The notes under the pieces are model-generated. The model did no database searches. It had not been told where the DNA came from and was given only the letters and a program-made list of their open reading frames with translations. Shown one piece after another: positions 8,487 to 59,287 of a stretch of DNA of 64,000 nt; the first letter of the stretch is position 1; each line of letters begins with the position of its first letter. The DNA comes from an uncultured Candidatus Saccharibacteria bacterium (GTDB lineage Bacteria; Patescibacteriota; WWE3; CAZQFB01). Made by a program: the position numbers and the translations under genes. The stretch lies in NCBI GenBank assembly GCA_964592525.1, contig CAZQFB010000002.1:3310-67309 (forward strand), read 5' to 3'.

Positions 8487-8496
8487 CTTTGTGAGG

Positions 8497-9536: not shown

Positions 9537-9544
9537 GCAAGAAA

Positions 9545-31735: not shown

Positions 31736-31775
31736 CTTCTCCCCCCTGTGGTTTTATTCAGCGGATAATGGTGGG

Positions 31776-31804: not shown

Positions 31805-31811
31805 TTTGGGG

Positions 31812-31846
31812 TAAGTAAAAAGCCCGTCGGTTGCTAGCCAACGGAC
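31812..31846 (-). terminator. Rho-independent terminator of pentapeptide gene B
   Basis: On minus strand gtccgttgg-ctagcaa-ccgacgggc followed by ttttacttac; 10 nt after the gene B stop. Confidence 0.6.
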
Positions 31847-31855
31847 CTTGCTCTC

Positions 31856-32863: not shown

Positions 32864-32939
32864 TTTCTCCCCCTTGTGGGTATAGCCAACGGATAATGGT
32901 GGGATTGTAGCACTAGGTTAACACGAGGGCAATTTGGGG

Positions 32940-32974
32940 TAAGTAAAAAGCCCGTCGGTTGCTAGCCAACGGGC
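32940..32974 (-). terminator. Rho-independent terminator of small membrane-protein gene (third copy of the same hairpin module)
   Basis: gcccgtcgg-ttgctag-ccaacgggc; on minus strand followed by U-run; promoter module for gene C adjacent. Confidence 0.55.
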
Positions 32975-43091: not shown

Positions 43092-44846
43092 ATGCCTGCC
43101 CCTGAACCTAATACCACTTCTGCGACCAGTAATTTGGCTGAGTCGTTCACCTCACCCGAGGAGTTGTTGCTCCAGCAAGGTTTATTAACCCCCGAGCAAT
43201 ATGAAGAAATAAAGCAAGAACACATTAATACTGGTCAAGCCATTGAAGATCTTATCTTAGCTCGTGGGTATGTTAATCCTTTGACCTTTAACCAAGCTAA
43301 AGCGAAAGTGTTGGATTTAGCTTATGTGGAAGTTAATGGTTTAGAGGTGCCTTCGTTTATTTTAAATTTTATCCCGGAAACACTAGCCGCTAAGTACCTG
43401 GTACTGCCTTTTAAGGAAGAGGGTGCCAGCTTGCATGTTGCCATGGCGGATCCGCTTGATCTTCAGGTCATCGCTATTGTGGAGAAAAAATCTGGGATGC
43501 GGGTTAAACCCTACTTAGCGGATAAAACTAATCTGGGCTATGCAATCCAACAACAATATAGTAAAGCTTTTGGTTCAGAAGTATCTGAAGCTCTTAAGGA
43601 AGTTGGTCAGCTCACCCTGAAACCAACGAAACTGGATACCTTAGAAGGTACGGAATTGAAGTCTTTGGAGAATGCTCCCGTGGCGAGGATTGTGGGTCAG
43701 ATACTCCAGTATGCGGTTCGCTCTGGTGCTTCTGATGTCCACATTGAACCCGGTGAAGATAAAACGAGAGTACGCTACCGGGTGGATGGTGTGATGTCAG
43801 AGAAGTTAAGTTTACCGCTCACTGTCCATGCTAACTTGGTTTCGCGCGTTAAGATCTTGTCCAATTTGAAGATTGATGAAAAACGGTTACCTCAAGATGG
43901 GCGGTTTAAGGTGCAAGTTGGCACTACGATTATTGACTTAAGGGTGTCAACCTTACCTACAGTCTACGGGGAAAAAGTGGTCATGCGTTTGTTGGAAGGT
44001 GCTGGGCGGGTGATGGGTATTCAGGAATTAGGCATGCGTGGTAGTGCCCTGAAAAGATTTGAGGCTAGTTTATCTAAAACTTTAGGTATGATTTTGGTTA
44101 CTGGTCCGACGGGGAGTGGTAAAACTAACACTTTAGCTTCGGGTTTGGCGAGAGTGAACACGATTAAGGTCAATGTTATTACCTTAGAGGATCCAGTGGA
44201 AATACGTATTCCTGGGGCTAACCAGGTGCAAATCAACCACACTGCCGGTTTAACTTTTGCTTCGGGTTTGCGTTCTATCTTACGACAAGACCCTGATATT
44301 ATTATGGTGGGTGAGATCAGGGATCAAGAAACAGCTGAATTAGCGGTGCATGCTTCCTTAACGGGTCATTTGGTCTTTTCCACCCTGCATACCAAGTCAG
44401 CCGCGGGAGCTCTGCCGCGGTTGTATGACATGAAAGTTGAACCTTTTTTATTGGCTTCTACGGTAAATCTAGTTATGGCGCAGCGTTTGGTGAGAACCCT
44501 GTGTAATAAGTGTAAACAACCTTACGTGCCCAGTGATGAGGTTAAAGCTGATATCAGCACAGTACTTGGTGCTTATCTTTCTCTGGATCTATCTAAGCTG
44601 CAGCTTTATAAACCAGTAGGTTGTAGTGAGTGTGGGTCGGAGGGTTATGCTGGTCGGACGGGAATTTTTGAGGTTTTAGAAGTTACCCCTCGGATTGGTC
44701 GGGCGATCATCCAACGCCAGCCCGAAGGAGAACTCCAAAAGATTGCCGTTGAGGAAGGCATGTTGCCCTTACTACTTGATGGTTATTTGAAAGTGGTTGA
44801 TGGTACAACGACCATTGAGGAAGTCTTAAGAGTAGCCAAGGATTAA
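43092..44846 (+). CDS. pilB: Type IV pilus assembly ATPase PilB (GspE family)
   Basis: N-terminal GspE_N domain, Walker A TGPTGSGKT, tetracysteine motif. Confidence 0.9.
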   Translation: MPAPEPNTTSATSNLAESFTSPEELLLQQGLLTPEQYEEIKQEHINTGQAIEDLILARGYVNPLTFNQAKAKVLDLAYVEVNGLEVPSFILNFIPETLAAKYLVLPFKEEGASLHVAMADPLDLQVIAIVEKKSGMRVKPYLADKTNLGYAIQQQYSKAFGSEVSEALKEVGQLTLKPTKLDTLEGTELKSLENAPVARIVGQILQYAVRSGASDVHIEPGEDKTRVRYRVDGVMSEKLSLPLTVHANLVSRVKILSNLKIDEKRLPQDGRFKVQVGTTIIDLRVSTLPTVYGEKVVMRLLEGAGRVMGIQELGMRGSALKRFEASLSKTLGMILVTGPTGSGKTNTLASGLARVNTIKVNVITLEDPVEIRIPGANQVQINHTAGLTFASGLRSILRQDPDIIMVGEIRDQETAELAVHASLTGHLVFSTLHTKSAAGALPRLYDMKVEPFLLASTVNLVMAQRLVRTLCNKCKQPYVPSDEVKADISTVLGAYLSLDLSKLQLYKPVGCSECGSEGYAGRTGIFEVLEVTPRIGRAIIQRQPEGELQKIAVEEGMLPLLLDGYLKVVDGTTTIEEVLRVAKD

Positions 44847-44849
44847 AAG

Positions 44850-45917
44850 ATGCAGACAAACCCAACCTTAGACGAAATATTAAAAGCGGTTATCAATCTC
44901 CGGGCATCGGATTTACATTTAACGGCGAATCTTCCTCCGATTGTACGGGTGGATGGTACGCTTAAGCCTTTAGAAGGCTTTGCCAGTTTAACTGATGAGC
45001 TGGTTAATGGCTTGGTTTTGGCGATGTTGGGAAAAGAAAAAACCGAACAGCTAAAGCAGAATCTAGAAGTGGATACTTCCTACGCACACGAACAACTGGC
45101 GCGTTTTAGAGTGAATGCCTATTTTCAGCGTTCCCATATAAGTGCTGCTTTGCGGTTGATTCCAGCCAAGATACCCTCTTTGCGGGAATTAGGTATGCCG
45201 GATATTATTGCCACTTTCTGCTCTTTACCTTATGGTTTGGTGCTGGTAACGGGACCAACCGGTCAGGGTAAATCAACCACCATTGCTGCCATGATCCAGT
45301 TGATTAATGAAACCCGTAATGTCCATATTGTCACCATTGAAGATCCGATTGAGTATGTGTTTACCCCCCAAAAAGCGTTAATAACCCAGCGGGAAATGCA
45401 TCATGATACCCATTCTTGGGAGGTGGCTTTGCGCAGTTCACTGCGGGAAGATCCTAATGTTGTTTTGGTGGGAGAGATGCGTGATTTTGAAACCATTGCC
45501 GCAGCGATAACCATTGCCGAAACTGGTCATTTGGTTTTTGCCACCCTGCACACGAGTAGTGCTTCCCAGTCAATTGACCGGATTATTGATGTTTTCCCGG
45601 AAAACCAGCAACAGCAAGTTCGGGTCCAGTTATCGGCGATGCTGGAAGCGGTCATCTCGCAACGGCTGTTACCAAGACTCAACGGTGGGCGGGTGGCAGC
45701 CGTTGAAGTGATGACGGCGACTCCGGCGGTGCGGAATATTATTCGTGAAGGCAAAACGCATCAGGTGGATAATGTCATTGCCACTTCGGCTGATGTGGGG
45801 ATGTTGTCGTATGAATATTCGCTGGCTAATTTAGTAAAAAGCCGGGTTATTGCTGAAGAGGCAGCACTGGCGGCTACCACCAGACCGGAAGAATTAACAC
45901 GCTTACTTAAGAGGTAA
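44850..45917 (+). CDS. pilT: Type IV pilus retraction ATPase PilT
   Basis: 355 aa, Walker A TGPTGQGKSTT, PilT-size without N-terminal GspE_N domain. Confidence 0.88.
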   Translation: MQTNPTLDEILKAVINLRASDLHLTANLPPIVRVDGTLKPLEGFASLTDELVNGLVLAMLGKEKTEQLKQNLEVDTSYAHEQLARFRVNAYFQRSHISAALRLIPAKIPSLRELGMPDIIATFCSLPYGLVLVTGPTGQGKSTTIAAMIQLINETRNVHIVTIEDPIEYVFTPQKALITQREMHHDTHSWEVALRSSLREDPNVVLVGEMRDFETIAAAITIAETGHLVFATLHTSSASQSIDRIIDVFPENQQQQVRVQLSAMLEAVISQRLLPRLNGGRVAAVEVMTATPAVRNIIREGKTHQVDNVIATSADVGMLSYEYSLANLVKSRVIAEEAALAATTRPEELTRLLKR

Positions 45918-45924
45918 AATTGCC

Positions 45925-47127
45925 ATGCCTGTATTAACTTATACTGCTAAAGACCAACAAGGACAGCTTAAAAAAGGAACGGTAGAAGCTCTAGACCCCA
46001 AGAAGGCGGCGGAAGTATTAGCGGGGAGTGAGCTAACCCCGATTACCATTAAAGAACAAAAAACCCGGTTTAGTCTGCGGGAGAAATTGGGTGGTGGTGT
46101 CTCGGGTAAACAGCTGGTAGCTTTCACTCGGCAGTTAGCCACGATGGTGTCTGCTGGTTTGCCCCTGCCCCAATCACTCCAAACACTGGAAACGCAAACC
46201 GACAGTGAGCGCTTGCGTGAAGTTATTGCCGATTTGGTACGTGCGGTTGAAGGCGGTTCCCCACTGTCGCTGGGTATGGAAAAGCATAGTAAAGTCTTCA
46301 GTCCGGTCTATGTAAATTTGGTGAAGGTGGGTGAAGCTTCGGGTAAGCTTGATACGGTGCTTCTTAACTTAGCCGATACGGTCGAAAAATCATACGATTT
46401 TAAGTCAAAAGTACGCACGGCGATGGTTTACCCAACCATGATCATGTTAACAATGCTGGTGGTGTTTACTTTTCTTTTTGTGTTTGTGGTGCCCCAATTA
46501 GCGCAGATTTACGAAAATTTTGAGCGTGAACTGCCCATACAAACCAAATTAGTGATTGCTATTTCTGATTTGTTGACCCAACGGGGTTGGTTGGTCATTC
46601 TGTTATTAATTATGGGCGTAGTGTCGTTTGTGCAGTTTAAAAAGACAGAGCTGGGCAAATATTTTTTGGCACGTTTGGGGTTGAAGTTTCCCATTATTGG
46701 TCATCTGCGTCAAAACGTGGAGATCACCGAATTTACCCGTACTTTAGGTTTACTGGTGCAAAGTGGCGTGCCTATTTTGCAGGCTATGGAGATTGCCACG
46801 CAAAGTATGAACAATCTCTTATTTCGTGAGGGGGTACTAAATGCGACAAAGCAAGTTGAAAGAGGCGTGTCTATAGCAGTTGCCTTAAGCAACACCACCA
46901 CCTTTCCGCCGATGGTGACCCAGATGATCGGGGTAGGTGAACGAACTGGAAAGCTGGATGAGGTTTTGCGCCGGTTATCTGAATTTCTACAAAAGGAAAC
47001 CAACGCTTCCGTAGATAATTTAGCTACAGCTCTGGAACCGATAATACTGGTGGTGTTAGGAGCGATGGTGGGTTTCTTGGTGATGAGTATTATTTTGCCA
47101 ATATATGATTTAACTAGTAGTTTTTAA
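45925..47127 (+). CDS. pilC: Type IV pilus platform protein PilC (GspF family)
   Basis: 400 aa, two GspF repeats, three TM helices. Confidence 0.88.
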   Translation: MPVLTYTAKDQQGQLKKGTVEALDPKKAAEVLAGSELTPITIKEQKTRFSLREKLGGGVSGKQLVAFTRQLATMVSAGLPLPQSLQTLETQTDSERLREVIADLVRAVEGGSPLSLGMEKHSKVFSPVYVNLVKVGEASGKLDTVLLNLADTVEKSYDFKSKVRTAMVYPTMIMLTMLVVFTFLFVFVVPQLAQIYENFERELPIQTKLVIAISDLLTQRGWLVILLLIMGVVSFVQFKKTELGKYFLARLGLKFPIIGHLRQNVEITEFTRTLGLLVQSGVPILQAMEIATQSMNNLLFREGVLNATKQVERGVSIAVALSNTTTFPPMVTQMIGVGERTGKLDEVLRRLSEFLQKETNASVDNLATALEPIILVVLGAMVGFLVMSIILPIYDLTSSF

Positions 47128-47209
47128 GGAGCGTTTGACCGATGCCAAAAGCAGTGTGCTATACTTTTGATGATATGAATAATCTTGCCCAGAGAGGGGG
47201 TGAATCTTA

Positions 47210-47689
47210 ATGATTAAAAATCAAACTGGTTTTACGCTGATTGAGATGTTGATTGTCATGGGGGTGATTGCGATTTTGGCGGTGGCGATTTTAAGTGCTA
47301 TTGACCCAGTTGAACAAATGCGCAAAGCGGAAGATTCCAGGATGAGGTCGGATACAGCGGAACTACTTAATGCCCTTGAGCGTTACTACACCACCTTTAG
47401 GGAATATCCATGGTCTACAGCACCTGATGCGGATTGTCCGCAGTTTGATGGTTCTCCTGCAACTTGTGATTTACCCTTGGATGACTTAATTGACACCAAT
47501 GAACTCAAACCACAGTTTGCTAACCGTGAGCTGGAGAATTATTACATCACCCAAGATAGTAACGATTCAGTACATATCTGTTTTAGACCCCAATCTAAAT
47601 CTTGGGATATGGAGGCTACTACTAAGGCTTATACCCAAACAGGCACAACCGGTTGCACTGCTGATTGTTATGTCTGTGTGCCCGAGTAG
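47210..47689 (+). CDS. pilA: Type IV major pilin
   Basis: Class III signal: KNQTG/FTLIEMLIV with Glu at +5; C-terminal Cys pairs. Confidence 0.85.
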   Translation: MIKNQTGFTLIEMLIVMGVIAILAVAILSAIDPVEQMRKAEDSRMRSDTAELLNALERYYTTFREYPWSTAPDADCPQFDGSPATCDLPLDDLIDTNELKPQFANRELENYYITQDSNDSVHICFRPQSKSWDMEATTKAYTQTGTTGCTADCYVCVPE

Positions 47690-47828
47690 GCTCTTGGTAA
47701 GCTAGCCTGTTGGCTAAAGAGAATGACATTATTAGGGAAAAGCTCCTTAAATGGGGTTTTTTCCTTTTTCTGAAGGTTTTTATCTTTTCAGGCAGGGCGG
47801 AAAATATGGCGCGTGTTACTATTTAATC

Positions 47829-48557
47829 ATGCTCGTTTGCTGGCTATTTCTATTTGGTTTGGTGGTGGGGTCGTTTCTTAATGTGGTTATTGATCGGGTA
47901 CCCCGCCAAGAAAAAATTACCGGACGCTCTCACTGTGATTTTTGCCAGCGGCAATTGAGCTGGCGTGAGCTGCTGCCCCTTATTAGTTTTGTTTGCCAAA
48001 AAGCGCAGAGTAAATGTTGCCACCACCGACTCTCCTGGCAATACCCTCTGGTAGAAGTGGCGACGGGGATTTTGTTTGTCGTGCTTTGGCGCCAAGCAGA
48101 TCTGCTACTCCTGCCTTTGGCAGCTGGGTTGTTGGCGCTCTTAGTGATTGATCTGAAAACAATGCTTTTGCCCCAGACCCTCACCTATCCCCTATTGATA
48201 TTGGCACTTGTGCGCTTAGTTATTCTTCCTGACTTAAATCTGGGCTTAACCTTGTTAGGGGCTTTGGGTGTGGGTCTGTTTTTTTACAGTATTATTGTCA
48301 TCACTAAAGGGAGGGGAATGGGTCAGGGGGATGTGACTTTGGGTGTTTTGGTTAGCCTGATTGCCTCTTGGCCTTATCTGGTAACCTCGCTTTTTGTAGC
48401 CAATCTCTTAGGTGGGGTGGTTGCTTGGCTGCTGCTTCTTTTGGGTGTGAAAAAAAAGAGCGACAAACTACCTTTTGGTCCTTTTTTGATTATCGGGTTA
48501 GCATTAACCCTCCTTAATGGTGAGTGGTTAATGGCGCTGCTCTTTCCGCTCTGGTAG
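47829..48557 (+). CDS. pilD: Prepilin peptidase (A24 family)
   Basis: N-terminal CxxC...CxxC zinc motif, catalytic-type GQGD; start taken at internal ATG. Confidence 0.85.
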   Translation: MLVCWLFLFGLVVGSFLNVVIDRVPRQEKITGRSHCDFCQRQLSWRELLPLISFVCQKAQSKCCHHRLSWQYPLVEVATGILFVVLWRQADLLLLPLAAGLLALLVIDLKTMLLPQTLTYPLLILALVRLVILPDLNLGLTLLGALGVGLFFYSIIVITKGRGMGQGDVTLGVLVSLIASWPYLVTSLFVANLLGGVVAWLLLLLGVKKKSDKLPFGPFLIIGLALTLLNGEWLMALLFPLW

Positions 48558-48601
48558 GGTTTGCCAATGACCTTGAGTATCATGCTAAACTGATAAGGTG
48601 T

Positions 48602-49198
48602 ATGAAAAACTGCTCTGTCACTAACCAAACCGGGTTCACCTTAGTGGAACTGATTATTGCCATGACGCTAATGTCACTGATTGCGTTTGGGTTTCCTTCC
48701 TTTGGCGCCTATAACAATAGACAAGCTATCCAACTCGCTGCCAAACAACTTAAGACAGATCTTAGGGACAGTCAGTCAAGATCGCTTCATGGTACGAAAG
48801 CCAAGGCAACTGGTGATGAGGCTGCTATTTGGGGTTTAAGGTTGACTTTAGCTTCAGATGTTTACCAGCGCTATTATTGTGACGCCACACAAACTTCTCT
48901 GAACGATTATTGCTACAATCAGTGTGTGGCTGATCGGGAGTTCCGTTTACCAAAAGGCGTACAATTTAAAGAGATCACTGCTTACCCGGCTACTGGTGGT
49001 TTGAATGTGGTATTTACACCAGCCACCAACAGTACGGTGTTGTTTCACACTGATGATGGTGCCCCAGTGCAAGTTGGTGGTACCCCAATCACCAGTGTTT
49101 CAGTGGAGTTGGGCATACCCGGTTTTGGTGAGGGAATGACAGAATCTCGCTATGTGGTAATTGATAAAAACGGTAATATTGAAGATCTTAAACTATGA
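48602..49198 (+). CDS. Minor pilin / pseudopilin
   Basis: Prepilin motif TNQTG/FTLVELIIAM with Glu at +5. Confidence 0.7.
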   Translation: MKNCSVTNQTGFTLVELIIAMTLMSLIAFGFPSFGAYNNRQAIQLAAKQLKTDLRDSQSRSLHGTKAKATGDEAAIWGLRLTLASDVYQRYYCDATQTSLNDYCYNQCVADREFRLPKGVQFKEITAYPATGGLNVVFTPATNSTVLFHTDDGAPVQVGGTPITSVSVELGIPGFGEGMTESRYVVIDKNGNIEDLKL

Positions 49199-49812
49199 CC
49201 TGTCCCGCTAATAATCATCAAGACCTAACCAACTCCCCTGCTTCTGGTCAGGGTTTAATTGAAGCCATGCTGGCAGTAGCAGTTGTCATGGTCGTGATGT
49301 ATTCATTGCTCAATTTAGGGGCGCTGGGGTTAAGAAACTCTAGATTGGCTAGTGATCGGGTGGTGGCGACCAGATACCTACAGCAAGGGATTGAGCTTTT
49401 ACGGGCACAGCGTGACCAGAGTGGTGGTTGGAGTCAGCTAAGCGCGCTGCCGAAAGATACGGTCTTATGTTTAAATCCGCAAACGGGTGTAATTAGTGCG
49501 GGTGAACCTAATTGTTATTACGAAGACGGCGGTTTGAGGGAAGAATACCTTTTAAACCAGGTGTTTGAGCGGACGCTATTGGTGTCAAAGGTCTATCGTG
49601 CGGCAGCAGAAGCTTGTCCTAATGATTGTAGTGCCTGTGGTGAGATTACCAGTGCTGTGGGTGGTCATGTGGATGATTGTTCTCTGAAAATCACTGTGCA
49701 ATTGGCTTGGCCGGGGGTGAGCGCGAATTGCGAAGACCACCCGGTTTTAGGCGTGGTTGGTAATAAATATTGCTTGCGAACCAGCACCATACTGACTAAT
49801 TGGCGGCAATGA
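49195..49812 (+). CDS. Minor pilin-like protein
   Basis: GQGLIEAMLAV prepilin-like N-terminus; start overlaps upstream stop. Confidence 0.6.
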   Translation: MTCPANNHQDLTNSPASGQGLIEAMLAVAVVMVVMYSLLNLGALGLRNSRLASDRVVATRYLQQGIELLRAQRDQSGGWSQLSALPKDTVLCLNPQTGVISAGEPNCYYEDGGLREEYLLNQVFERTLLVSKVYRAAAEACPNDCSACGEITSAVGGHVDDCSLKITVQLAWPGVSANCEDHPVLGVVGNKYCLRTSTILTNWRQ

Positions 49813-50468
49813 TAAAACAAAAAGGTTTTACCATGATTGAGGTGTTGTTGACCTTGGGGGTCTTGTCCCTTATTTCAACCGTAGCCTTAACCATCTTTCA
49901 AGAAACAATGGCGACTTACCAAAAAGCTAATAATATGTTGGAGCTGGAAAGCAACGGTGGTTACGTGCTTAGCCTGCTAGAGGAAAAAATTAGGTCCGCG
50001 CAGGCAGTGTTAGCTTATAAGGATTATGACAGTTGTACGGAAGGGTGTGCGAGTAGTTGGCTTTTGTTAGTTCCGGCTCATAAAACAGTTTCAGTGGCGT
50101 GCATTTATCTGGGCCATGTTCATGACTCTGGGGGCGATCCTGACCTGTGGCCGAATAATGGGTATGTTTTTCTGCAGGAAGGGACGTCTGCCCAATGTAC
50201 TGCGCTTAACCCTGCGGAGGATCTGGATGGCAGTCTGCTTGATAGTTGGCAGACAGCAGCGCTGTCCAATCGCAACCAAGACGATCCCTTTAATGGTGTT
50301 AATGTGTCCTCGTTAGTATTTATGATTGCGCAACAGGTGGGTAATGACCCAGCCACAGTGGGGATTGCTTTGGATTTAAAGCAAGGCGTGAGTGGCAATC
50401 CGCTAACCGTGGTACCAGAAAATAAAAAAGCCTCTTTGCACCTAGAAACTACTGTTTCTCTGCGCTAA
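49800..50468 (+). CDS. Minor pilin-like protein
   Basis: KG/FTMIEVLLTLGV prepilin motif. Confidence 0.7.
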   Translation: MAAMIKQKGFTMIEVLLTLGVLSLISTVALTIFQETMATYQKANNMLELESNGGYVLSLLEEKIRSAQAVLAYKDYDSCTEGCASSWLLLVPAHKTVSVACIYLGHVHDSGGDPDLWPNNGYVFLQEGTSAQCTALNPAEDLDGSLLDSWQTAALSNRNQDDPFNGVNVSSLVFMIAQQVGNDPATVGIALDLKQGVSGNPLTVVPENKKASLHLETTVSLR

Positions 50469-50480
50469 AATAAAGAAAGT

Positions 50481-52907
50481 ATGCTGCCCCAAAAGAGTCT
50501 GCTTAAATTAACTACTTCTTTAATTTTCACCTTGGCTTGGCTGGTTAGTTATCCCTCTGTGGCGCAAGCGGAGGATCAGTGGCAGGTGGTGGGTGATTAT
50601 CCAGGCACTATTAATAATTCTTTTAATGAGGTTTTAGATGAAAAAGCTCCTAATTGTACCGATGGTAGTATTTACTCCTTAAACGGTCATTTGTATGTAA
50701 TTATAGATGGACCTTATTATCGCACAACTGTTTATCGGCTGGATGGCAATTCATGGGTAAATATTGGAGAAATTACTAAAAGTAGCGGTTCAAGTAATCC
50801 TGGAAAAGCTATGACATACTACCAAGATAATCTTTATGCTATTAGCCGTGCCTACACTAGAGAATACATTTTTCCTGATGGTGATATTACTACTCAATGG
50901 GATAGTACGGGAGTTGATCATTACACTGAGGTAGATGAAGACGTACTAGCTCCCATAGCGGGAGATACCAACGATCACATTTATGGTCGTATGAATGATG
51001 TCGATCAATTCAGCCTGAGTGATCCCACCAAAAATGAGACTGCTAATCGAATAGATATTCATTTTTACGGTAGGGGGATCCATGACAAACCCGATAACAC
51101 TGATTGGGCCCCTGTATTGGTGGAACTTATGCTTGATGGCGTGGCAATATCCGATGATACTTTAAGTTTGCCCAATAACAACTGGGGTTGGTTTACCACT
51201 AATCACGCGAATAATGTTGAATTAACACCTTCAGAGTTAAACAGGTTAGAGCTCAAATTAACACCCAACCATGTACAAGACATGACAACTTATTATATTG
51301 CTGCTGTCGTCGTGGAGGTATCATATGATTCAGCACTAACGGCAGCGAAATATATTTCTGATAATAATTGGCAACCCTTAGGCAATACCTCCCTAGATTG
51401 TGATGATACAGGCAGTGCTTATTTTAGCTGCAATACTACTGGTGTGACTGGTTTTTGGGGTTATAACAATAAACTGTATGTAGGTACTGGTGCTTCTACT
51501 GGTCCGAAAGTGTTTGAGTGGAATGGTTCTACTTGGTCTTTAGTGGGATCATCTGGGCTGGGTGATCGTGCGGGGGGAACCGATCGGGGTAGTCTTGATT
51601 TACTTACTCATGACTCAAGCCTGGTGGCGGGAGGTATGCAGAACACAACCTGCACAGTATGCCTTTCACCCGGTAATTGTGTGCCTGGGGTTTCATGTTC
51701 CTTAGCTTCAATATATAAATTTAATTCTGCTAATAATTGGAGTTATCTTGCTTATGATAATGACACCACTATGACCGCTGTTGCTGACACTAATGCTCGT
51801 TCTTTAGTGGAAATTGCCAGTACTTTATACACGCATGATGTAAATAGTGTTTATAAATACATTCCTGATGCGGGGCATCCTGACCCCGATATTATGGGTT
51901 TAGTGGGGAGTCGGAGGTTTAATTCTCCTGCGCAAAATGTAGGTATGACCTCTTGTGATAATTATTTATACACCCATGCTTCTAGGTCTAGCTTTGGCAC
52001 CTGGGATGAGGTTTATCGCTTTGATACTACTAGTGGTACTCAATGGGACATGGTCGGTGATTATTTTGCACTGGGTGAAAAGCATCTGTACCACGGGGTG
52101 CACAGCATCACCACCTTAAATGATAAGGTTTATGTTCTTACTAAACAGTCATTGGATGATCTTGAGTTTCATATTTTAGTTAGTTACAAAGGATTGCTGT
52201 CTAATTTTGAACCATATCCTGCTGTGCAAGTGTGGGAGTATACCGGCGCGGCGGGCAGTTGCGGTGCCGTCAATGGCACTATCAGCGGCGTGGTGTTTGA
52301 GGATGAGGATCTGGATGGTCTTTATGATACGGGCGAAAGTTATAAGTCTGGGGTGGTCGTAAGCCTTAATCCCGGAGGTCTTTCCGTCAATTCCTTAGCA
52401 GCGGACCCAAGCTATACTTTCACCGAGCTAGACCCTAGTCCCACGTACTCCCTAGCGATTACGTTGCCCAGTGGCTGGGTGGCCACCACACCCTACCAGG
52501 TTGGTAACATTGTCTTTAATGAAACCACTCCCTCTTACACCATCAACTTTGGTTTGATCCAAGGCGGTACCCTTCAAGGTACGGTTTGGGAAGATGAGGA
52601 CAAGCAATGCGACATTGATCCCGGTGAGCAAAATTACACTGGTGCAGTGGTTGATCTTCAGTTTGACCACAGCTTGTCCACCTCAAACCCTCAACTAAAA
52701 TATGATGTAGCCACCTCATCGGAGATCACCACGGGTACTAATTTTTCTTGGCTGGTGGCGCCTGGTAGTTATACCGTCAGCGTGGACTCTAGTCCTTGGG
52801 CACCTTCGGGGTACGATGCTACTACTGACACCAGTGTTAGTGGGGTGGTGGTTACTAAAGGCGGCACAACCACTACGTCAGCAGCAAGTTGTCTTAACTT
52901 GGAGTGA
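50481..52907 (+). CDS. Large secreted protein with C-terminal SdrD-B/Cna-B-like repeats (candidate pilus-associated adhesin)
   Basis: Signal peptide; repeated G.V.EDED.DG.YD.GE motifs near C-terminus; embedded in pilus operon. Confidence 0.5.
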   Translation: MLPQKSLLKLTTSLIFTLAWLVSYPSVAQAEDQWQVVGDYPGTINNSFNEVLDEKAPNCTDGSIYSLNGHLYVIIDGPYYRTTVYRLDGNSWVNIGEITKSSGSSNPGKAMTYYQDNLYAISRAYTREYIFPDGDITTQWDSTGVDHYTEVDEDVLAPIAGDTNDHIYGRMNDVDQFSLSDPTKNETANRIDIHFYGRGIHDKPDNTDWAPVLVELMLDGVAISDDTLSLPNNNWGWFTTNHANNVELTPSELNRLELKLTPNHVQDMTTYYIAAVVVEVSYDSALTAAKYISDNNWQPLGNTSLDCDDTGSAYFSCNTTGVTGFWGYNNKLYVGTGASTGPKVFEWNGSTWSLVGSSGLGDRAGGTDRGSLDLLTHDSSLVAGGMQNTTCTVCLSPGNCVPGVSCSLASIYKFNSANNWSYLAYDNDTTMTAVADTNARSLVEIASTLYTHDVNSVYKYIPDAGHPDPDIMGLVGSRRFNSPAQNVGMTSCDNYLYTHASRSSFGTWDEVYRFDTTSGTQWDMVGDYFALGEKHLYHGVHSITTLNDKVYVLTKQSLDDLEFHILVSYKGLLSNFEPYPAVQVWEYTGAAGSCGAVNGTISGVVFEDEDLDGLYDTGESYKSGVVVSLNPGGLSVNSLAADPSYTFTELDPSPTYSLAITLPSGWVATTPYQVGNIVFNETTPSYTINFGLIQGGTLQGTVWEDEDKQCDIDPGEQNYTGAVVDLQFDHSLSTSNPQLKYDVATSSEITTGTNFSWLVAPGSYTVSVDSSPWAPSGYDATTDTSVSGVVVTKGGTTTTSAASCLNLE

Positions 52908-52930
52908 GCTAAAAATAATATGGAGGTAAC

Positions 52931-53482
52931 ATGAACAAAAAAGCAGTCATCTTAATAGGATCCTTAATCGTGCTTATATTTTTGGGTTTAGCGACTTGGT
53001 ATATCAATCATAACCCAAAAAACACTTCCGAGGCTGCTCAAATAGCAGTGCCTTTTGGCAGCCATGAAAGTGGCGCGCAAAATAGCCAAGCAAATTTAGC
53101 CAACGATCCTCGTTATAAGGACTACCGTACGGAACCAGTACCACCCTCCTCTGACTTTAGTGTGTTTTTAACTGATGCTTTTGGTACCGAGATAGCCAAC
53201 GATTCGGTGATTACCGTTGATGACTCCAGTTATATCACTAATTATGACCTGCACTTTCCTAATTTAGGTCAGCTGGAAAGTGGAGAGAGTTACACCTTAT
53301 GGTTACAAACGGACGAGGGTGCCCGCACACTGCTAGGTCAACTTGAGGTGGCGGAAGGTGTGGGTGTCTATCAGGCAGCAGGGTCAAGAGTGAAAGCGGG
53401 CTGGAGCATTTTGGTGATATATGAAAATAGCGCTAATGAAGAAAACCTGATTTACCGAGGCAGATTAATACCTAAGCCATAA
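52931..53482 (+). CDS. Hypothetical membrane-anchored protein
   Basis: 183 aa, N-terminal TM. Confidence 0.4.
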   Translation: MNKKAVILIGSLIVLIFLGLATWYINHNPKNTSEAAQIAVPFGSHESGAQNSQANLANDPRYKDYRTEPVPPSSDFSVFLTDAFGTEIANDSVITVDDSSYITNYDLHFPNLGQLESGESYTLWLQTDEGARTLLGQLEVAEGVGVYQAAGSRVKAGWSILVIYENSANEENLIYRGRLIPKP

Positions 53483-55776
53483 TGAAAAACCACCCTCCCC
53501 TACTTGGCTTAGTCACCATTATGACCTTACTGGGAGTGGGTTGGTTAGTGGTGCGTGAGGTCCAGGCCAGTTTTGGTGTTTATCCCAAGAATGGCACTTT
53601 TACTGGCTATGTGTTTGAGGATTTAGATAGTGATGGGGTGAGAGATGTCGGCGAACCCAACTATAACTTTACCCTCAACCCTTATTACTCTATTACATAC
53701 CAGGGTCCCGAGAATGGTAACTTGTTGGTTAACGGTGCTGTATCTCCTACTAAAAATCTGGTTTCCAATGAGGTGCGGCCTGGTTTGTATACGGTTAATT
53801 TTGGTACCCTGCCCGCGGGTTTTATGTTAACCACTTCACCAAGCCAGCAGGTTAATGTACCACCAGGGGGAGTGGCTCCGGAGGTTTTGTCTTTTGGCAT
53901 TAAAGTTGGCCCCCCACGGATAGAGGGCGTGGTGTGTGATGATTCAAATAATAATAATAGTTGTGACGCGGGGGAAGAATTAAGCGGAATAACTGTGGGT
54001 TACACCACACCCACTTTAGGCAGTAACTTTGTGACCACACCCACCACTCAAATTGCGAGCTGCTCTGGTTGTAACTACACGACCATGGAGAACACGCCCT
54101 CACTTTACCCAGGCACTAATCTAGTAGCAGTCACTATTCCGCTGGGGAAAATACTTAAGTCACCTACACAACCACAACAGAAAGAGTTAGTGCTGGGAGA
54201 ACATTGGCAGGTTGATTTTGTTTTTGGTGGTGAAACGGATGGTCGGATTGGTGGCTATCTGTGGAATGACTATAACCAAAATAGCTTATATGATGAGGAA
54301 GAAGACGAAACGATATTAAATGACCAGCGATTTACGATTTCTGTTTGGGAAGGTGGTCATGAGTACTTCTCTGCTCCTCCTCATCCGGCGGCTGGTACTT
54401 ACCTGACTGACCTTCTGACCCCTGCTTCCGATTACAATGTTAACTTAGAGCTGCCTTGGGGATATTGTTTGGGTGATCTGGGGGTGGCGGAGGTAGGTTG
54501 GAATGATAATGAGTCTGTTTATGAATATGCAGTTAAAGAGTCTCCTCTGGAGACCGGTTCAGTGATTGAAGTGACTGGTGGTGCGGTGTCTACCGTTAAT
54601 TTAGGTGTGTTGTCTGATTATGATCTCTCGCAAGACCCACCAACGGATGTTATTTTAACGCCTCCTGATGAGGCTACCGTCCGGCTGATTATTGATGATG
54701 TGGGAGATGCTACTCCCTGTTGGGGGGGTGGTGATGTCTCTGTTGCTTTTGACGACAGTGGCTGGCCACCAGGATTAACTTTCAGCACAACTCCGCCTGT
54801 ACCGGCTCTTCTTGATCCCAACTCTAAACCGGATTTTTATCTGACAATTTCTGCTGATAGCACAGTGCATGATGGTATTTATCCATATGAATATATAGCT
54901 ACTAATCCTTTCCGCGGTAAAGTGCTGGGGGGGTACAATGTGGTCGTTGGTTTGCGTAGCTGGCTTCAGCTGGTTGACTTAGATGTGTTTTCAGCCTACA
55001 CCGGTATTGAACCACCCATTAATTTTGTGCTGCCCCAGACTCCTTGTTGTGGATACTCTCCCTATTTAGTGACGAGAAGCACGTCGGCTTGGGGGGGTGG
55101 TGATTTAGGTGGGATGGCCGTGGCGGTGGGCCAAATAGACATTGCGGTGACCACTACGGCTGGAGATCCCGCGGCTAGCAGCCGGAGTTGGGTCTTGAAT
55201 CAGTATACAGGTGATCTTGGTTTGCCCCTTAGTGAGTTGGCGCTTGGTTTGGTGAGTACAGAGTGTGATTTTGACCAGCTGGTACCGGGGGGTGCTTGCC
55301 AGTACGAAGGTAAGTACCTGCCAGATGGTTATGACCTTACCGGAGTGGGCGTGGCGGTGGTTTATGTGCCAGATGATTTGTTTATTAATACAGATTTTAG
55401 ATCGGACGCGGTTAATGAACGGGTGATCATTGTCGTTGCTGGTGAGATTAAGATTGCAGGGTCAGTGGGCGTGCCCTACAACCCCCCCTCCACGTACGCT
55501 AATATTGAAGCGGTGCTGATTACTTTAGACGGCTGGGATATTATTCTGGATAGTAATGATAATTTAAGTGAACAACTGCGCCTGACTGGTGGCTTGTATG
55601 CTTCCGGGCATCTGGAAAATATGCGTGAGGTCCAGGAAAGTGGTGGTCAGGTTAATACCTTCCCGTCTTTGGTGGTGAGCAGGGATCCGTTCTATTACCA
55701 TACGCCTATCTATCAGTTTTCAAAAGTAAAATTGCACTGGCGAGAAGTTAATTTTATGCCAACTAACTATGACTAA
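53482..55776 (+). CDS. Large secreted protein with SdrD-B-like repeats (second candidate pilus-associated adhesin)
   Basis: N-terminal anchor; GYVFEDLDSDGVRDVGEP and GGYLWNDYNQNSLYDEEED motifs. Confidence 0.5.
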   Translation: MKNHPPLLGLVTIMTLLGVGWLVVREVQASFGVYPKNGTFTGYVFEDLDSDGVRDVGEPNYNFTLNPYYSITYQGPENGNLLVNGAVSPTKNLVSNEVRPGLYTVNFGTLPAGFMLTTSPSQQVNVPPGGVAPEVLSFGIKVGPPRIEGVVCDDSNNNNSCDAGEELSGITVGYTTPTLGSNFVTTPTTQIASCSGCNYTTMENTPSLYPGTNLVAVTIPLGKILKSPTQPQQKELVLGEHWQVDFVFGGETDGRIGGYLWNDYNQNSLYDEEEDETILNDQRFTISVWEGGHEYFSAPPHPAAGTYLTDLLTPASDYNVNLELPWGYCLGDLGVAEVGWNDNESVYEYAVKESPLETGSVIEVTGGAVSTVNLGVLSDYDLSQDPPTDVILTPPDEATVRLIIDDVGDATPCWGGGDVSVAFDDSGWPPGLTFSTTPPVPALLDPNSKPDFYLTISADSTVHDGIYPYEYIATNPFRGKVLGGYNVVVGLRSWLQLVDLDVFSAYTGIEPPINFVLPQTPCCGYSPYLVTRSTSAWGGGDLGGMAVAVGQIDIAVTTTAGDPAASSRSWVLNQYTGDLGLPLSELALGLVSTECDFDQLVPGGACQYEGKYLPDGYDLTGVGVAVVYVPDDLFINTDFRSDAVNERVIIVVAGEIKIAGSVGVPYNPPSTYANIEAVLITLDGWDIILDSNDNLSEQLRLTGGLYASGHLENMREVQESGGQVNTFPSLVVSRDPFYYHTPIYQFSKVKLHWREVNFMPTNYD

Positions 55777-56764
55777 ACTAAAGTCACCGACCATTCAAAT
55801 CTTTAATCAAGAACCACCGGAAGGTCAGGTGCTGTTATTGATTTTGTTAGTGATGGGAGTGGCCCTTAGTGTTGGTTTGGCTGTCTCTTCCAGGTCTTTG
55901 GGTTCTCTCAAGCAAACCTCCGATGCAACGGAAGCGGTTATTTGTTTAGATGCAGCCGAGGCTGGCATTGAAGATGTTCTGCAGGCTTTAAGTGATCCTA
56001 GCCAAGCATTGCAGTATGAGCTGTGTAACAGTGATAACTTAGCAGATGATAGCTGGGATGATGTGGCGGCTCCCGATGATAATATTATTGTGTGTGATTT
56101 GGATAATAATGTTTGTGGTGGGAAAGAGAAGATAGCTGATCCGGGGTATGATGTAGCTTACTGTCTCTGGCAAAACGACGGTCAATACCACACTGTTAAC
56201 GTACCCCAAGACGACCCCTTGGAAGTGATCTTAACCAAAACAGGCTATACACCCCGCCCAAGCAGTATTGATCTGCACTGGTCTGGGGGTGCTGCTGTGC
56301 CTTATTTTTCGCTGGAAGGATTGAACACGTCTAATTGGACGGCAGCCACTTTAGATAAAGGTATTCATGACTTGAGTGCTGCGGATGGGTGTGGTTTGGC
56401 TGATACTAGAGACAACGACCCTAATACCAGTAGTAGTTCGGCGTTAATTGCTGGTGGTCAAAAAATTAATCTGCTAGTCCCGCCGTTAGATGGGGGCTAT
56501 CCTTCTGACGTAGTTAAACTACGGTTGCGTTTTTTGTGTGAGGATGTAGCTGAAATATATGTAGTGGGCAAAGATTGTGCGGGGTTGGATTGTTCTGGCG
56601 GCGAAGTCGCCTTGCCACCCAATGCGTACACAATCCGTTCCACTTGCCTTAACCAGAAAGTCAGTCGGACTTTGGAGGTGGTTAAAAGCCAGGCGGTTCT
56701 ACCAGCACTATTTGATTTTGGGGTTTATTCGGGTTCAACCACCTTACCTTTAGAAGAGGAGTAA
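55769..56764 (+). CDS. Hypothetical membrane-anchored protein in pilus operon
   Basis: N-terminal hydrophobic helix; no canonical prepilin motif. Confidence 0.4.
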   Translation: MTKLKSPTIQIFNQEPPEGQVLLLILLVMGVALSVGLAVSSRSLGSLKQTSDATEAVICLDAAEAGIEDVLQALSDPSQALQYELCNSDNLADDSWDDVAAPDDNIIVCDLDNNVCGGKEKIADPGYDVAYCLWQNDGQYHTVNVPQDDPLEVILTKTGYTPRPSSIDLHWSGGAAVPYFSLEGLNTSNWTAATLDKGIHDLSAADGCGLADTRDNDPNTSSSSALIAGGQKINLLVPPLDGGYPSDVVKLRLRFLCEDVAEIYVVGKDCAGLDCSGGEVALPPNAYTIRSTCLNQKVSRTLEVVKSQAVLPALFDFGVYSGSTTLPLEEE

Positions 56765-57826
56765 TTGATAAACATGTCTGCCACTTATGAATTTTTTGGT
56801 TTGGATATCGGCTCGTACTGGATTAAAGGAGTGCAGTTACATCCTAATAAAGAAGGCACTTTTTCGCTGGTTTCTTTTGGCGTAATCCCCTCCCCGGTTA
56901 ATCTGGCTTTAAGCGATCATGAGGGAGATCTGCGTACCATGTCGGAAGGTCTCAAGGAACTGGTACGCGCCTACAAGCTACCCCCAGCCGTAGTAACCAC
57001 TCTCCCGGAAGGGTTACTGTTTAGTTTTGTGATTGATTTTCCGCGCATGAGTGAGAAGGAGTTAGCCAAATCTTTGCAATGGGAAGCCGAGCAATACCTA
57101 CCCATGCCACTGGAGGAGGTATCTTTGGATTACACAATTTTGGAGCCAACGGGACGGTTGAAAAATCAAGAACGGATGGAGGTGGCTTTTATCGCGGCAC
57201 CGAAAAAATTAGTTAATAAATACCTGCGCGTTATTGAACAAGCAGGTCTTGAAGTACTGGCGGTGGAAAACCAAACAACAGCAGTGGTGCGGTCTTTAGC
57301 AGTGGGAGCAGTTGATACCCCCACGACGATCTACATCTCCTTAGGCGCTTTAGCGACTGATTTTGCCATTGTGCGCACGGGGGCGGTCCGCTTTACCCGT
57401 AGTATCCCCACCGGTGGTGGGGTGATGACCCGCGCTGTCGCGGAAAAGTTGGGTTTTGACAGCCAACGCGCTGAAGAATACAAGAAAAGTCAGGGTGTAA
57501 CCGAGGAAGGCGTGGAAGGTAAGATGCGGGAAGCTTTGGCTCCGGTGGTTGATTTGTTGGTTTCCGAAGTACGACGAGCGATGACCTTTTATGCCTCTCG
57601 CTATCACCCTGATTCCATTAAACGAGCGGTGTTGTTTGGTGGTTCGGCCTTGTTGCCGGGTTTGCTGCCTTACCTGGCGGGGCATCTTGACTTAGAGATT
57701 GAGTTGGCTAATTCAACCCGACTGATTACCTACCCCCCTGAAAGTAGCAGTTTAAAAGAACAGTTTATTCAATTATCACCAATCACTACTGTGGCGATTG
57801 GTTTAGCCATGAAAAGAATAGCCTAA
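56765..57826 (+). CDS. pilM: Type IV pilus assembly protein PilM
   Basis: Actin-like ATPase fold signature FFGLDIGS; position before pilN-pilO. Confidence 0.8.
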   Translation: MINMSATYEFFGLDIGSYWIKGVQLHPNKEGTFSLVSFGVIPSPVNLALSDHEGDLRTMSEGLKELVRAYKLPPAVVTTLPEGLLFSFVIDFPRMSEKELAKSLQWEAEQYLPMPLEEVSLDYTILEPTGRLKNQERMEVAFIAAPKKLVNKYLRVIEQAGLEVLAVENQTTAVVRSLAVGAVDTPTTIYISLGALATDFAIVRTGAVRFTRSIPTGGGVMTRAVAEKLGFDSQRAEEYKKSQGVTEEGVEGKMREALAPVVDLLVSEVRRAMTFYASRYHPDSIKRAVLFGGSALLPGLLPYLAGHLDLEIELANSTRLITYPPESSSLKEQFIQLSPITTVAIGLAMKRIA

Positions 57827-57857
57827 AAAATGCTACAATTTAAACGAGGATCTGCCC

Positions 57858-58424
57858 ATGCCCACAAGTGATATTAACCTAGTCCCAAAAGAAGTTCAGC
57901 TCCAGAAAAAAAAGCGCAATTACCAGCGAGCTTGGTTAATTGGTGGCGTGGTTCAATTTGTGTTGGTGTTGGCGGTGACAGTGGCGTTGATACTCATTAA
58001 CTTATCACAAAACCGAGCGATTACTTCAGCCCAGAAAGATATTGACCGGGATTTGAAAATAATCAGTTCACAACTAGCAACTTTGGGTGTGGTTAAAGAT
58101 ATTGAAAACAGAACCAATTATGTGCGGCAGGTTTTTTCCACCCGTAATTATTATTCCAAGTTACTATCCCTTATGCCCACCCTTTTGCCCCAAGGAGCAA
58201 CCGTGCAACAGTTATCGGTGACTGGGGATACCCTTAAACTAGTTGGTACTGCTCTTAGTACGGTTGATGTGGCTAAGTTTTTAAAAGTGGCAGTTGCTCC
58301 GGATCAAGGCGGTCAATATTTTAAGAGCGTCCAATTACGGTCTGTGTCACTTAATCAGGGTAGCGGTACGGTTCAGTTTTTAATTCACTTAGATTTAATT
58401 AAAGGAGTATTGGGTAAAGAATGA
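57858..58424 (+). CDS. pilN: Type IV pilus assembly protein PilN
   Basis: N-terminal INLVP motif, single TM. Confidence 0.75.
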   Translation: MPTSDINLVPKEVQLQKKKRNYQRAWLIGGVVQFVLVLAVTVALILINLSQNRAITSAQKDIDRDLKIISSQLATLGVVKDIENRTNYVRQVFSTRNYYSKLLSLMPTLLPQGATVQQLSVTGDTLKLVGTALSTVDVAKFLKVAVAPDQGGQYFKSVQLRSVSLNQGSGTVQFLIHLDLIKGVLGKE

Positions 58425-59287
58425 GACCGTTTAAAAACCCCCAACTGAAGGTAAAACTAAAAGATTTAGCACCAGTGGTGTTACTCTTACTTTCTTGCCT
58501 ACTTTTATTTCTGGTTATCATGCCACAGTTTCGGCGGGTTCGTGAGCTAAATGAGCAGAGAAAAGCCATCCAGCTCAAACGGGATGAGCTGGCACAAAGG
58601 GTTAACCTGATTAGAAGTTATACGGTGTCTCTGAATTTATTAACGGCCGACCAGACTTTACTAACGCGTGCTCTGCCAGCTAAAGAAGAAATACCAACCT
58701 TGATGGGTCAGGTTCAGCAAATCGCTCGTGAGGCGGGGGTGACTTTAGGCACCTTGAATTATTCAGGTCGGGTCGTGGGAGCAGGAGACGCAGTGGGTAA
58801 GGTGACCGTGCAAGCAGGAATTAATGGTAATTTTAAAACCATCACGCGCTTTTTGGAGTTGTTGGAACAATCGTCACGGCTGCTGGATACCATGAGTCTT
58901 AATTTGAGCGGTCAGGGTGTTGGTTTGTCCCTGTCCATGCCTCTTGATGCTTATTATTACCCTGCTGAAGAGGTCACCGAGCCTAATGTGGTAATCACTT
59001 TAAACACTTCTTCTCCAGAATACATTACTACTTTAGCTAAAGTGAAAGCTCTTAAATATTATGATATTCCGGTGGATACCGGTCGGGGTATTGGCAAAGA
59101 CGATCCTTTTAGCGCTGTTGGTACCACTCCTAAGGTGGAAGAAGTACCTAAGCCCTCACCACAGCAAGAGCAACCCCCGACTGACGCCACAAACCAGTCA
59201 ACTGACCAAGTGCCACTACCTCCAGCTACCTCTCCCACCCAACCAAGTGGGTTGGTGCCTGTTCCCCCATCACCGGTTGCGCAATAA
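58421..59287 (+). CDS. pilO: Type IV pilus assembly protein PilO-like with Pro-rich C-terminus
   Basis: Single TM, coiled-coil, position after pilN. Confidence 0.65.
   Translation: MRPFKNPQLKVKLKDLAPVVLLLLSCLLLFLVIMPQFRRVRELNEQRKAIQLKRDELAQRVNLIRSYTVSLNLLTADQTLLTRALPAKEEIPTLMGQVQQIAREAGVTLGTLNYSGRVVGAGDAVGKVTVQAGINGNFKTITRFLELLEQSSRLLDTMSLNLSGQGVGLSLSMPLDAYYYPAEEVTEPNVVITLNTSSPEYITTLAKVKALKYYDIPVDTGRGIGKDDPFSAVGTTPKVEEVPKPSPQQEQPPTDATNQSTDQVPLPPATSPTQPSGLVPVPPSPVAQ

Follow-up and report, generated by a model that had tools for sequence, protein, structure and literature searches.

What would two genes for large exported proteins do in the middle of a type IV pilus operon? The question arises from a 64-kb stretch of DNA (the window, whose positions are used throughout), in which positions 43092 to 59287 of the plus strand form a complete secretin-less operon of the type IVa pilus (T4aP) kind. 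Its genes encode, in this order, PilB, PilT, PilC, the major pilin, PilD, three pilin-like proteins, a protein of 808 amino acids (aa) that we call Big1, a 183-aa protein, a protein of 764 aa that we call Big2, a 331-aa PilX-type protein, PilM, PilN and PilO. In our reading, to which we give a probability of roughly 0.55, Big1 and Big2 are non-pilins that work like PilY1 and dock on the minor-pilin tip of the filament, where they are plausible tip adhesins; the docking, the tip location, the adhesion and the ligand are what we infer here.

Two large exported proteins in the minor pilin module

For comparison, 80 Patescibacteria loci were fetched with a PilM profile. In the following, L002 denotes the relative with 68% identity in PilM, a low-coverage assembly with frameshifts, L003 and L004 denote WWE3 loci, and L085 and L086 metagenome WWE3 loci. 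Big2 and the PilX-type gene next to it have the following features.

53482 to 55776, plus strand: Big2, secreted SdrD-B-repeat protein with a conserved C-terminal module, 764 aa (orthologue of 546 aa in L003)
53482 to 53568, plus strand: Sec-type signal peptide of Big2, residues 1-29, cleaved between VQA and SF (read from the sequence; no prepilin motif)
53590 to 54621, plus strand: three SdrD-B-like repeats of Big2, residues ~37-380 (Pfam below cutoff, BLASTP, domains of a hidden Markov model (HMM))
54622 to 54948, plus strand: clade-specific middle region of Big2, residues ~381-489, with an invariant PCWGG (alignment)
54949 to 55761, plus strand: C-terminal (CT) module of Big2, ~270 aa, residues ~490-760, ending in W-R-E-V (iterated HMM)
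55769 to 56764, plus strand: PilX-type fourth minor pilin, 331 aa, G/Q site, no Glu5 (family PilX_N)

Big2 is 30% identical to the 546-aa protein encoded at the same position in L003 (E 4.5e-71), and its cleavage site, (V)(Q/H)A followed by S, is conserved in the orthologues. A preliminary description of this DNA had reported SdrD-B-like repeats in both large proteins. For Big1 this could be confirmed above the Pfam cutoff (SdrD_B, PF17210; 37.3 bits with a gathering cutoff of 29.7); Big2 remains below it with 27.1 bits, but its repeats are homologous to those of Big1 (BLASTP 2e-7; HMM). The L003 orthologue of Big2 has one SdrD-B-like repeat only.

The CT module was sought within 10 kb of pilM in 83 loci with an HMM that was iterated locally from the final 204 residues of Big2. 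It was found at the extreme C-terminus of 27 open reading frames (ORFs) of 335-1119 aa in 25 of the 83 loci, including loci labelled Gottesmanbacteria, Woesebacteria, WWE3, Dojkabacteria, Paceibacterota and Microgenomates. As a control for drift of the profile, the three members of the clade were compared with a separate 19-member alignment, which gave a probability of 99% and E 3.9e-18 over 230 columns; with this profile-profile match the module extends to residues ~490-760. Members mostly end in W-x-E-(V/I/L)-x-P. Nearly half of the genes (13 of 27) abut or overlap a PilX-type gene and two more lie within 500 nucleotides (nt) of one, while four genes without a detected PilX sit at most 400 nt upstream of pilM. 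The association of the large proteins with the pilus, suggested in the preliminary description, is thus strengthened for Big2, since its CT module is common to large pilX-adjacent proteins in many Patescibacteria pilus loci.

The N-terminal parts of these proteins are mutually unrelated and contain CBM_4_9, CBM60, fn3, SpaA-like (SpaA_4) or SdrD_B domains or nothing recognisable. The proteins are all acidic, with isoelectric points (pI) of 4.1-4.7; Big2 and its parts have a pI of 4.05-4.6, and 92 Asp and Glu residues stand against 31 Lys and Arg. Five of 22 CT modules match the family DUF7305 (PF23981) weakly, with 11-15 bits (best E 1.2e-3; gathering cutoff 27), and the window protein does not match it. 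Other weak matches are to Beta-sol_PIC and to the FwdC chain 5t5i, of beta-helix/solenoid type. In the literature we found no paper that mentions DUF7305 and no description of the CT module. A word-indexed search with Big2 returned only the protein itself, which is a singleton at 90% identity, as are the other proteins of the locus that were looked up. A genome scan with Big2 alone yielded zero relatives, and a metagenome scan with the alignment of the Big2 clade yielded two contigs only; their gene lengths and scores equal those of L003, so that they evidently belong to the same WWE3 lineage.

The PilX-type gene overlaps the stop codon of Big2 by 8 nt and abuts pilM. Its 331-aa product is 36% identical to that of a 319-aa gene in L003 (E 1e-68). 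In a first pass 70 ORFs across the Patescibacteria loci matched it, and in most of the 80 fetched loci a homologue stands directly before pilM; a PilX-type N-terminus is present in 57 of the 62 loci that have at least 6 kb upstream of pilM. The G/Q site is conserved. Of 30 proteins in the family, 22 match Pfam PilX_N (PF14341; best 1.9e-7), but the copy in the window is not among them, and PDB searches with sequence and profile gave nothing significant. From these similarities the 331-aa protein is predicted to be a PilX/GspK-type pilin. In seven loci (L015, L023, L025, L028, L029, L035 and L053) proteins of ~600 aa with a PilX-type N-terminal helix are encoded between pilX and pilM; they are apparently the pilin-fused counterpart of the non-pilin CT-module proteins. 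A large accessory protein of either kind is found in 26 of the 62 well-covered loci.

Big1 is encoded further upstream, directly after the third minor pilin, and has these parts.

50481 to 52907, plus strand: Big1, secreted protein with putative propeller and SdrD-B repeats, 808 aa (its counterparts in L002 and L003 have 612 and 618 aa and occupy the same position)
50481 to 50570, plus strand: Sec-type signal peptide of Big1, residues 1-30, cleaved between AQA and ED (read from the sequence; no prepilin motif)
50571 to 52271, plus strand: putative seven-bladed Kelch-like beta-propeller of Big1, residues 31-597 (repeats in a three-sequence alignment)
50862 to 51368, plus strand: inserted domain of ~170 aa in blade 2 of Big1, residues ~128-296, specific to the window and absent from the L002 and L003 orthologues
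52272 to 52904, plus strand: two SdrD-B-like repeats of Big1 with acidic loops of the DxDxDG type, residues 598-808 (Pfam SdrD_B 3.6e-9, two stretches)

In the alignment of three sequences Big1 contains seven repeats of the form xLYv...V(Y/F)xW/D...W..vG, and comparison of repeats with hhalign gave P values of 6.5e-5, 2.2e-4 and 2.9e-3. An exhaustive search of 1.84 billion representative proteins at E <=0.001 returned just 25 matches, which fall into two groups. The first consists of proteins with 5-12 repeated stretches, some of them with type IX secretion tails or DUF11; some match the beta-propeller families Rax2 (E 2.5e-7, above the whole-protein cutoff) and KIB1-4 (E 7.7e-7), each single stretch being below threshold. 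A profile of six Big1 sequences matched the Kelch protein 5a10 in the PDB weakly (E 0.079), and Pfam Kelch has no match in Big1. We consider it probable that residues 31-597 form the putative seven-bladed Kelch-like propeller. The second group of matches covers residues ~127-290 only. Relatives of the inserted domain are stand-alone proteins of 170-200 aa, one is fused to a Laminin_G_3 lectin-fold domain, and no Pfam family covers the domain. The word-indexed homology search with Big1 gave zero matches, and at 90% identity the protein is a singleton but for an odd cluster-mate of 50 aa; Big1 is clade-restricted and was found in three lineages. Close to the C-terminus (52890-52904 in the window, and likewise in L002 and L003) the Big1 orthologues keep a cysteine 3-5 residues from the end (...A-x-C-L/I...), which might form a disulfide link to a partner.

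The C-termini of the two large proteins read ...SAASCLNLE for Big1 and ...HWREVNFMPTNYD for Big2. In neither was an LPXTG motif, a hydrophobic tail, a transmembrane (TM) anchor or a lipobox anchor found, and neither matches N_methyl or PilX_N, the N-termini being of the Sec type with AxA cleavage. Both are predicted to be Sec-exported non-pilins without a membrane or sortase anchor. The possibility, named in the preliminary description, that they are unrelated enzymes finds no support in their Sec signals, SdrD-B stalk repeats with calcium motifs and acidic pI, none of which points to an enzyme. A template/variable repeat pair of a diversity-generating retroelement was also sought at the large genes, and no repeat pair touches the locus.

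In both related lineages that were found (L002; WWE3 L003/L085) all seven genes of the interval from pilD to pilM are present in the same order. PilD is followed there by three pilin-like genes, a 612/618-aa SdrD_B protein, a 163-173-aa gene, a 546-aa protein, a 319-aa gene and PilM-N-O, after which trmD follows on the opposite strand; in L002 the counterpart of Big2 is split into 609 and 385 aa. Big1 shares 34% and 28% identity with its orthologues, and overall the large proteins are 28-34% identical in the related lineages, compared to 68% (L002) and 50% (WWE3) for PilM. Preservation of the order despite such divergence argues against a chance insertion of the large genes. The preliminary description had placed them inside the pilus locus of the window; in both related lineages, too, they lie inside the minor-pilin module.

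The pilus operon, its host and the rest of the window

The remaining genes of the operon, with their family matches, are the following.

43092 to 44846, plus strand: PilB extension ATPase, 584 aa (Pfam T2SSE 2.5e-130, MshEN 1.9e-15)
44850 to 45917, plus strand: PilT retraction ATPase, 355 aa (Pfam T2SSE 2.3e-44)
45925 to 47127, plus strand: PilC platform protein, 400 aa (Pfam T2SSF 9.3e-63, two stretches)
47210 to 47689, plus strand: major pilin, 159 aa, N-terminal motif GFTLIE (N_methyl 2.6e-8)
47734 to 47765, plus strand: 13-bp stem-loop and T-run directly after the pilin gene (terminator-like, consensus match only)
47751 to 48557, plus strand: PilD prepilin peptidase, ORF of 268 aa (A24_N_bact 1.7e-28, Peptidase_A24 6.7e-13)
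48602 to 49198 (ORF opens at 48524), plus strand: minor pilin 1, FimU/GspH-like position, motif GFTLVE (N_methyl 1.7e-6)
49195 to 49812, plus strand: minor pilin 2, 205 aa, motif SG/QGLIE, the slash marking the cleavage site (N_methyl below threshold, E 0.018)
49800 to 50468, plus strand: minor pilin 3, 222 aa, motif GFTMIE (N_methyl 7.9e-6)
52931 to 53482, plus strand: small protein, 183 aa, with an N-terminal TM helix and a conserved domain of ~107 aa (ATGA overlap with the Big2 start)
56774 to 57826, plus strand: PilM, 350 aa from ATG (PilM_2 1.8e-42; the record copy P0010 has 350 aa)
57858 to 58424, plus strand: PilN, 188 aa (Pfam PilN 1.9e-8)
58421 to 59287, plus strand: PilO, 288 aa (Pfam PilO 4e-8, T2SSM_b 3e-4)

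According to the ORF listing and Pfam these genes form a single tight operon with intergenic spacings of -13 to +82 nt, in which the stop and start codons of the small protein and Big2, of Big2 and PilX, and of PilX and PilM overlap or abut. The core of a type IVa pilus (PilB, PilT, PilC, PilD, PilM, PilN, PilO and a prepilin with the N-methylation motif) is encoded completely, each component above its Pfam cutoff. The preliminary description had listed pilB, pilT, pilC, a pilin, pilD, three pilin-like genes, two large genes, pilM, pilN and pilO on one strand, and ORFs and Pfam matches bear out every one of them. The list was incomplete, since it passed over two genes that are both relevant to the mechanism, those for the 183-aa protein (52931-53482) and for the 331-aa PilX-type protein (55769-56764). 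It had also noted the lack of PilQ and PilP, and Pfam searches for secretin and PilP families indeed gave no match in any ORF of at least 300 aa in the window, nor in the locus; the LytR-CpsA-Psr (LCP) enzymes described below fit a monoderm-type envelope.

PilT is 55-60% identical to PilT of other Patescibacteria loci, and the major pilin is 58% identical to the pilin of L002 and 39% to that of L003. A scan for promoters and terminators gave counts at or below the shuffled expectation, except for the stem-loop after the pilin gene. This stem-loop (47734-47765) overlaps the annotated start of PilD and may be an attenuator that raises the pilin transcript relative to the downstream genes. Orthologues of PilD have 245-247 aa, and its true start is probably Met27. 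The ORF of PilM opens at 56765. The last ~60 residues of PilO, as read from the sequence, are a low-complexity tail rich in Pro, Thr and Gln that is missing in shorter orthologues (243 aa in L003); this tail might span the wall.

The core set of minor pilins is complete, with three proteins bearing Glu5 (GFTLVE, G/QGLIE, GFTMIE) and one of the PilX_N type without Glu5. Minor pilins 1-3 take the positions of FimU/GspH, PilV/GspI and PilW/GspJ, the assignment to H, I and J being by gene order only. NCBIfam matches minor pilin 1 at the N-terminus only, and its orthologues share 37% (L002) and 32% (L003) identity. Minor pilin 2 has conserved orthologues and is 42% identical to the product of a 195-aa gene at the same position in L003; for minor pilin 3 the identities are 41% (L002) and 36% (L003). 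The family of the 183-aa protein comprises members in the window, L002 and L003/L085 only, with a weak match to RskA_C (E 0.027). The protein is possibly a membrane-anchored assembly helper, a role that we infer. As a candidate for a PilP equivalent it was discarded, as Pfam gives no support for this.

The best relatives of PilM are found on an ENA contig (L002; 68% identity) and in candidate division WWE3 bacterium RIFCSPLOWO2_01_FULL_42_11 (50%); the remaining ones have ~40-44% identity, and those with a name are almost all Patescibacteria. TrmD, RNase III and PilC likewise have their best match in a WWE3 locus. The operon is flanked by housekeeping genes: holB, gyrB and gyrA precede it, and trmD, RNase III and others follow. 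Since the DNA is affiliated with Patescibacteria and the window encodes LCP enzymes, which are linked to the wall, a monoderm-type envelope can be assumed. The host is accordingly taken to be an ultrasmall WWE3-like Patescibacteria cell with such an envelope, and the operon to be its single T4aP-type pilus operon. In WWE3 and its relatives type IV pili have been known since 2013 (PMC3812714).

Several other regions of the window drew attention. An 818-aa membrane-anchored P-loop ATPase (25576-28032) matches coupling proteins of the TrwB/VirD4 type (1.2e-8) and HerA-like proteins (1.4e-7), and no further conjugation genes were recognised near it. At 7710-10497 three paralogous genes (258, 268 and 239 aa) stand in tandem, their products being hydrophobic at both ends; a Pfam scan, made for the first of them only, gave no match. 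This region contains a 300-nt repeat with 100% identity (8497-8796 and 9545-9844) and intragenic repeats of 48 nt, which suggests a recent duplication or gene conversion. Three tandem ORFs resembling pentapeptide repeats (31235-32972) have periodic repeats of 15 nt and form the peak of guanine-cytosine content in the window (0.50 compared to ~0.44). A class-I release factor on the minus strand (13153-13860) has just 235 aa, and its PCRF match starts at model position 101, so that domain 1 at the N-terminus is absent; the abutting L31 gene on the upstream side leaves no space for this part. A 621-aa secreted protein with a linker rich in Pro and Thr, also on the minus strand (10546-12411), has no Pfam match.

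Known systems and rival explanations

PilY1, a tip adhesin and priming factor of the T4aP of Pseudomonas aeruginosa and Myxococcus xanthus, is, like Big1 and Big2, a Sec-exported non-pilin encoded among minor pilins next to pilX. It combines a conserved C-terminal with a variable N-terminal part, as is likewise found here, it has a seven-bladed propeller, which is putatively present in Big1, and it depends on a set of four minor pilins of the FimU/V/W/X type, which the window encodes. The differences are that no sequence relation can be detected, that the CT module of Big2 is no recognisable propeller, and that the putative propeller of Big1 is N-terminal and Kelch-like. In addition, two large proteins and a small membrane protein are encoded here, and the host is probably of the monoderm type and secretin-less.

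With the MSCRAMMs (microbial surface components recognizing adhesive matrix molecules) of the SdrD/Cna type, Big1 and Big2 share SdrD_B (Cna-B-like) repeats with acidic loops of the DxDxDG type, probably a rigid calcium-dependent stalk, whereas they lack LPXTG, a C-terminal membrane anchor and an A-domain and are encoded inside a type IV pilus operon. PilB and PilC of Streptococcus sanguinis are minor components of a monoderm type IV pilus with adhesive modules (vWA, lectin), both being genuine pilins whose signal peptide is of class III. The two systems are alike in that a monoderm pilus displays adhesive modules, and unlike in that Big1 and Big2 are not pilins. ComZ of Thermus thermophilus, a large, atypical beta-solenoid protein whose gene lies between those of minor pilins, has its presumed place at the tip and binds DNA; Big1 and Big2 differ from it by being very acidic, and no sequence similarity was found.

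Within Patescibacteria, PilX1 and PilX2 of TM7x (Nanosynbacter lyticus, Saccharibacteria) are also part of a T4aP; their lectin-like or seven-bladed-propeller modules are encoded with the minor pilins, they have a PilX-type N-terminus without a canonical PilD signal, and they have been proposed to be tip adhesins for host binding (PMC11623550, PMC12206443). Deletion of PilX2, which has the seven-bladed propeller, halves host binding, and the authors draw the analogy to PilY1 (PMC11623550). Compared by description, the TM7x modules are fused to a PilX-type pilin, whereas here PilX is a separate protein of 331 aa and the modules reside on Sec-exported non-pilins, one of which (Big2) bears a distinct conserved CT module.

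Tip-docked adhesins are one of several roles that would suit such proteins. Ordinary Sec signals, the lack of a pilin N-terminus and of an anchor, and genes inside the operon would also fit cargo that is driven across the wall or S-layer by the pilus machine, is then released or displayed and is not part of the filament, as known for TcpF with the Vibrio toxin-coregulated pilus and for substrates of the type II secretion system. We regard this as unlikely: in a cell that lacks an outer membrane it is not obvious which barrier would call for a piston, a conserved CT module beside pilX in many loci looks rather like a docking element, and from SdrD-B stalks one would expect a protein that is tethered and projects. 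SdrD-B repeats typically occur in wall-anchored adhesins, Patescibacteria genomes are compact and Big1 has no pilus-linking domain; Big1 and Big2 might on these grounds be ordinary surface or wall adhesins that are physically unconnected to the pilus and share the operon only because genes are co-regulated or the genome is compacted. This is decidedly unlikely given that the gene order is kept at 28-34% identity in three lineages, that CT-module proteins occur repeatedly beside pilX, and that no LPXTG, TM or lipobox anchor would retain the proteins on the cell.

A role in assembly rather than adhesion would make Big1 and Big2 structural or priming parts, for instance a wall-spanning conduit or collar that replaces the secretin and PilP. 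The genes lie immediately before pilM, an alignment-type component might be seen in the 183-aa membrane protein, and PilY1 is required for priming in Myxococcus, according to a passage of PMC11623550 that cites this. A core part would be universal, however, and a CT-module protein is found in just 21 of the 62 well-covered loci, Big1 and the small protein in three lineages; variable N-terminal binding modules are in addition unfit for a conduit, which makes this role very unlikely. DNA uptake has long been suggested as a function of Patescibacteria pili (PMC3812714), and the weak matches of the CT module to beta-helix/solenoid families (DUF7305, Beta-sol_PIC, 5t5i) would agree with Big2 being a ComZ-like DNA receptor at the tip that serves natural transformation. 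Big2 and every part of it are strongly acidic, though, searches of the PDB gave no sequence match to ComZ, and related proteins carry carbohydrate-binding modules; of the four alternatives this one is the least credible and highly improbable.

A number of points also weigh against docking of Big1 and Big2 as PilY1-like tip adhesins. The preliminary description had compared them with the adhesins PilY1 and PilC, and as a homology this did not stand: SdrD_B is the sole Pfam family that matches at E <=10, NCBIfam gives zero matches and the PDB zero significant ones, so that by sequence they are not members of the PilY1/PilC family. PDB searches with Big1, Big2, PilX, the CT module and the Big1 family gave no sequence link to ComZ or to any solved structure, and single-sequence AlphaFold2 models of Big1 and Big2 had a mean predicted local distance difference test score (pLDDT) of 33.6 and 29.7, respectively, and were unusable. 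Big1 is without the CT module, and its gene position is the sole identifiable tie to the pilus. The HMM of the CT module was iterated on one small database with a search zone of 10 kb around pilM, and with about one third of the Patescibacteria loci (21 of the 62 well-covered ones) encoding a CT-module protein, it is an accessory component.

A model of the pilus tip and its meaning for Patescibacteria

If Big1 and Big2 act as tip adhesins, the four pilin-like proteins would form a priming complex that ends up at the tip of the pilus. Big2 would dock on this tip complex via its CT module of ~270 aa, with PilX as the likely partner, since pilX is its neighbour in almost all cases. The SdrD-B-like stalk of Big2 would then point outward. 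Big1, with its putative propeller and SdrD-B stalk, would be a second, clade-specific cargo, located on the same complex or bound to Big2. Extension of the pilus would show these domains to a surface or a host cell, and retraction driven by PilT would draw the cell in.

That Patescibacteria have type IV pili, that these lack secretins and that large accessory proteins occur at the tip has been described before. What is new is that the proteins here are built as non-pilins, that a module of seven genes is conserved in a rare WWE3-like clade, and that a pilX-adjacent CT module with swappable N-termini is widespread. A more far-reaching proposal, which we put forward tentatively and hold to be possible at best, is that the CT module defines a Patescibacteria-wide, so far undescribed family of pilX-adjacent, Sec-exported non-pilins. 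The module would act as a universal tip plug, and the N-terminal parts would be exchanged freely between SdrD-B, CBM, fn3, SpaA-like and unknown folds. The family would then be an exchangeable cassette for host or surface recognition and a main determinant of partner range in these episymbionts, in parallel to the PilX-fused modules of Saccharibacteria.

The significance of the window itself is more modest, as it adds one well-resolved locus of this sort from a rare WWE3-like lineage. A large part of bacterial diversity belongs to Patescibacteria, whose cultivated members all live attached to host cells. As to the recognition of these hosts, so far only pilin-fused modules (PilX1 and PilX2 of TM7x) have been tied to host binding. 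If our reading is true, a second, non-pilin route for the display of variable binding domains exists, and the proteins concerned would be candidate determinants of host range that are tagged by the CT module beside pilX. Metagenomes could be searched for such candidates, and the few genetically tractable strains would allow them to be tested.

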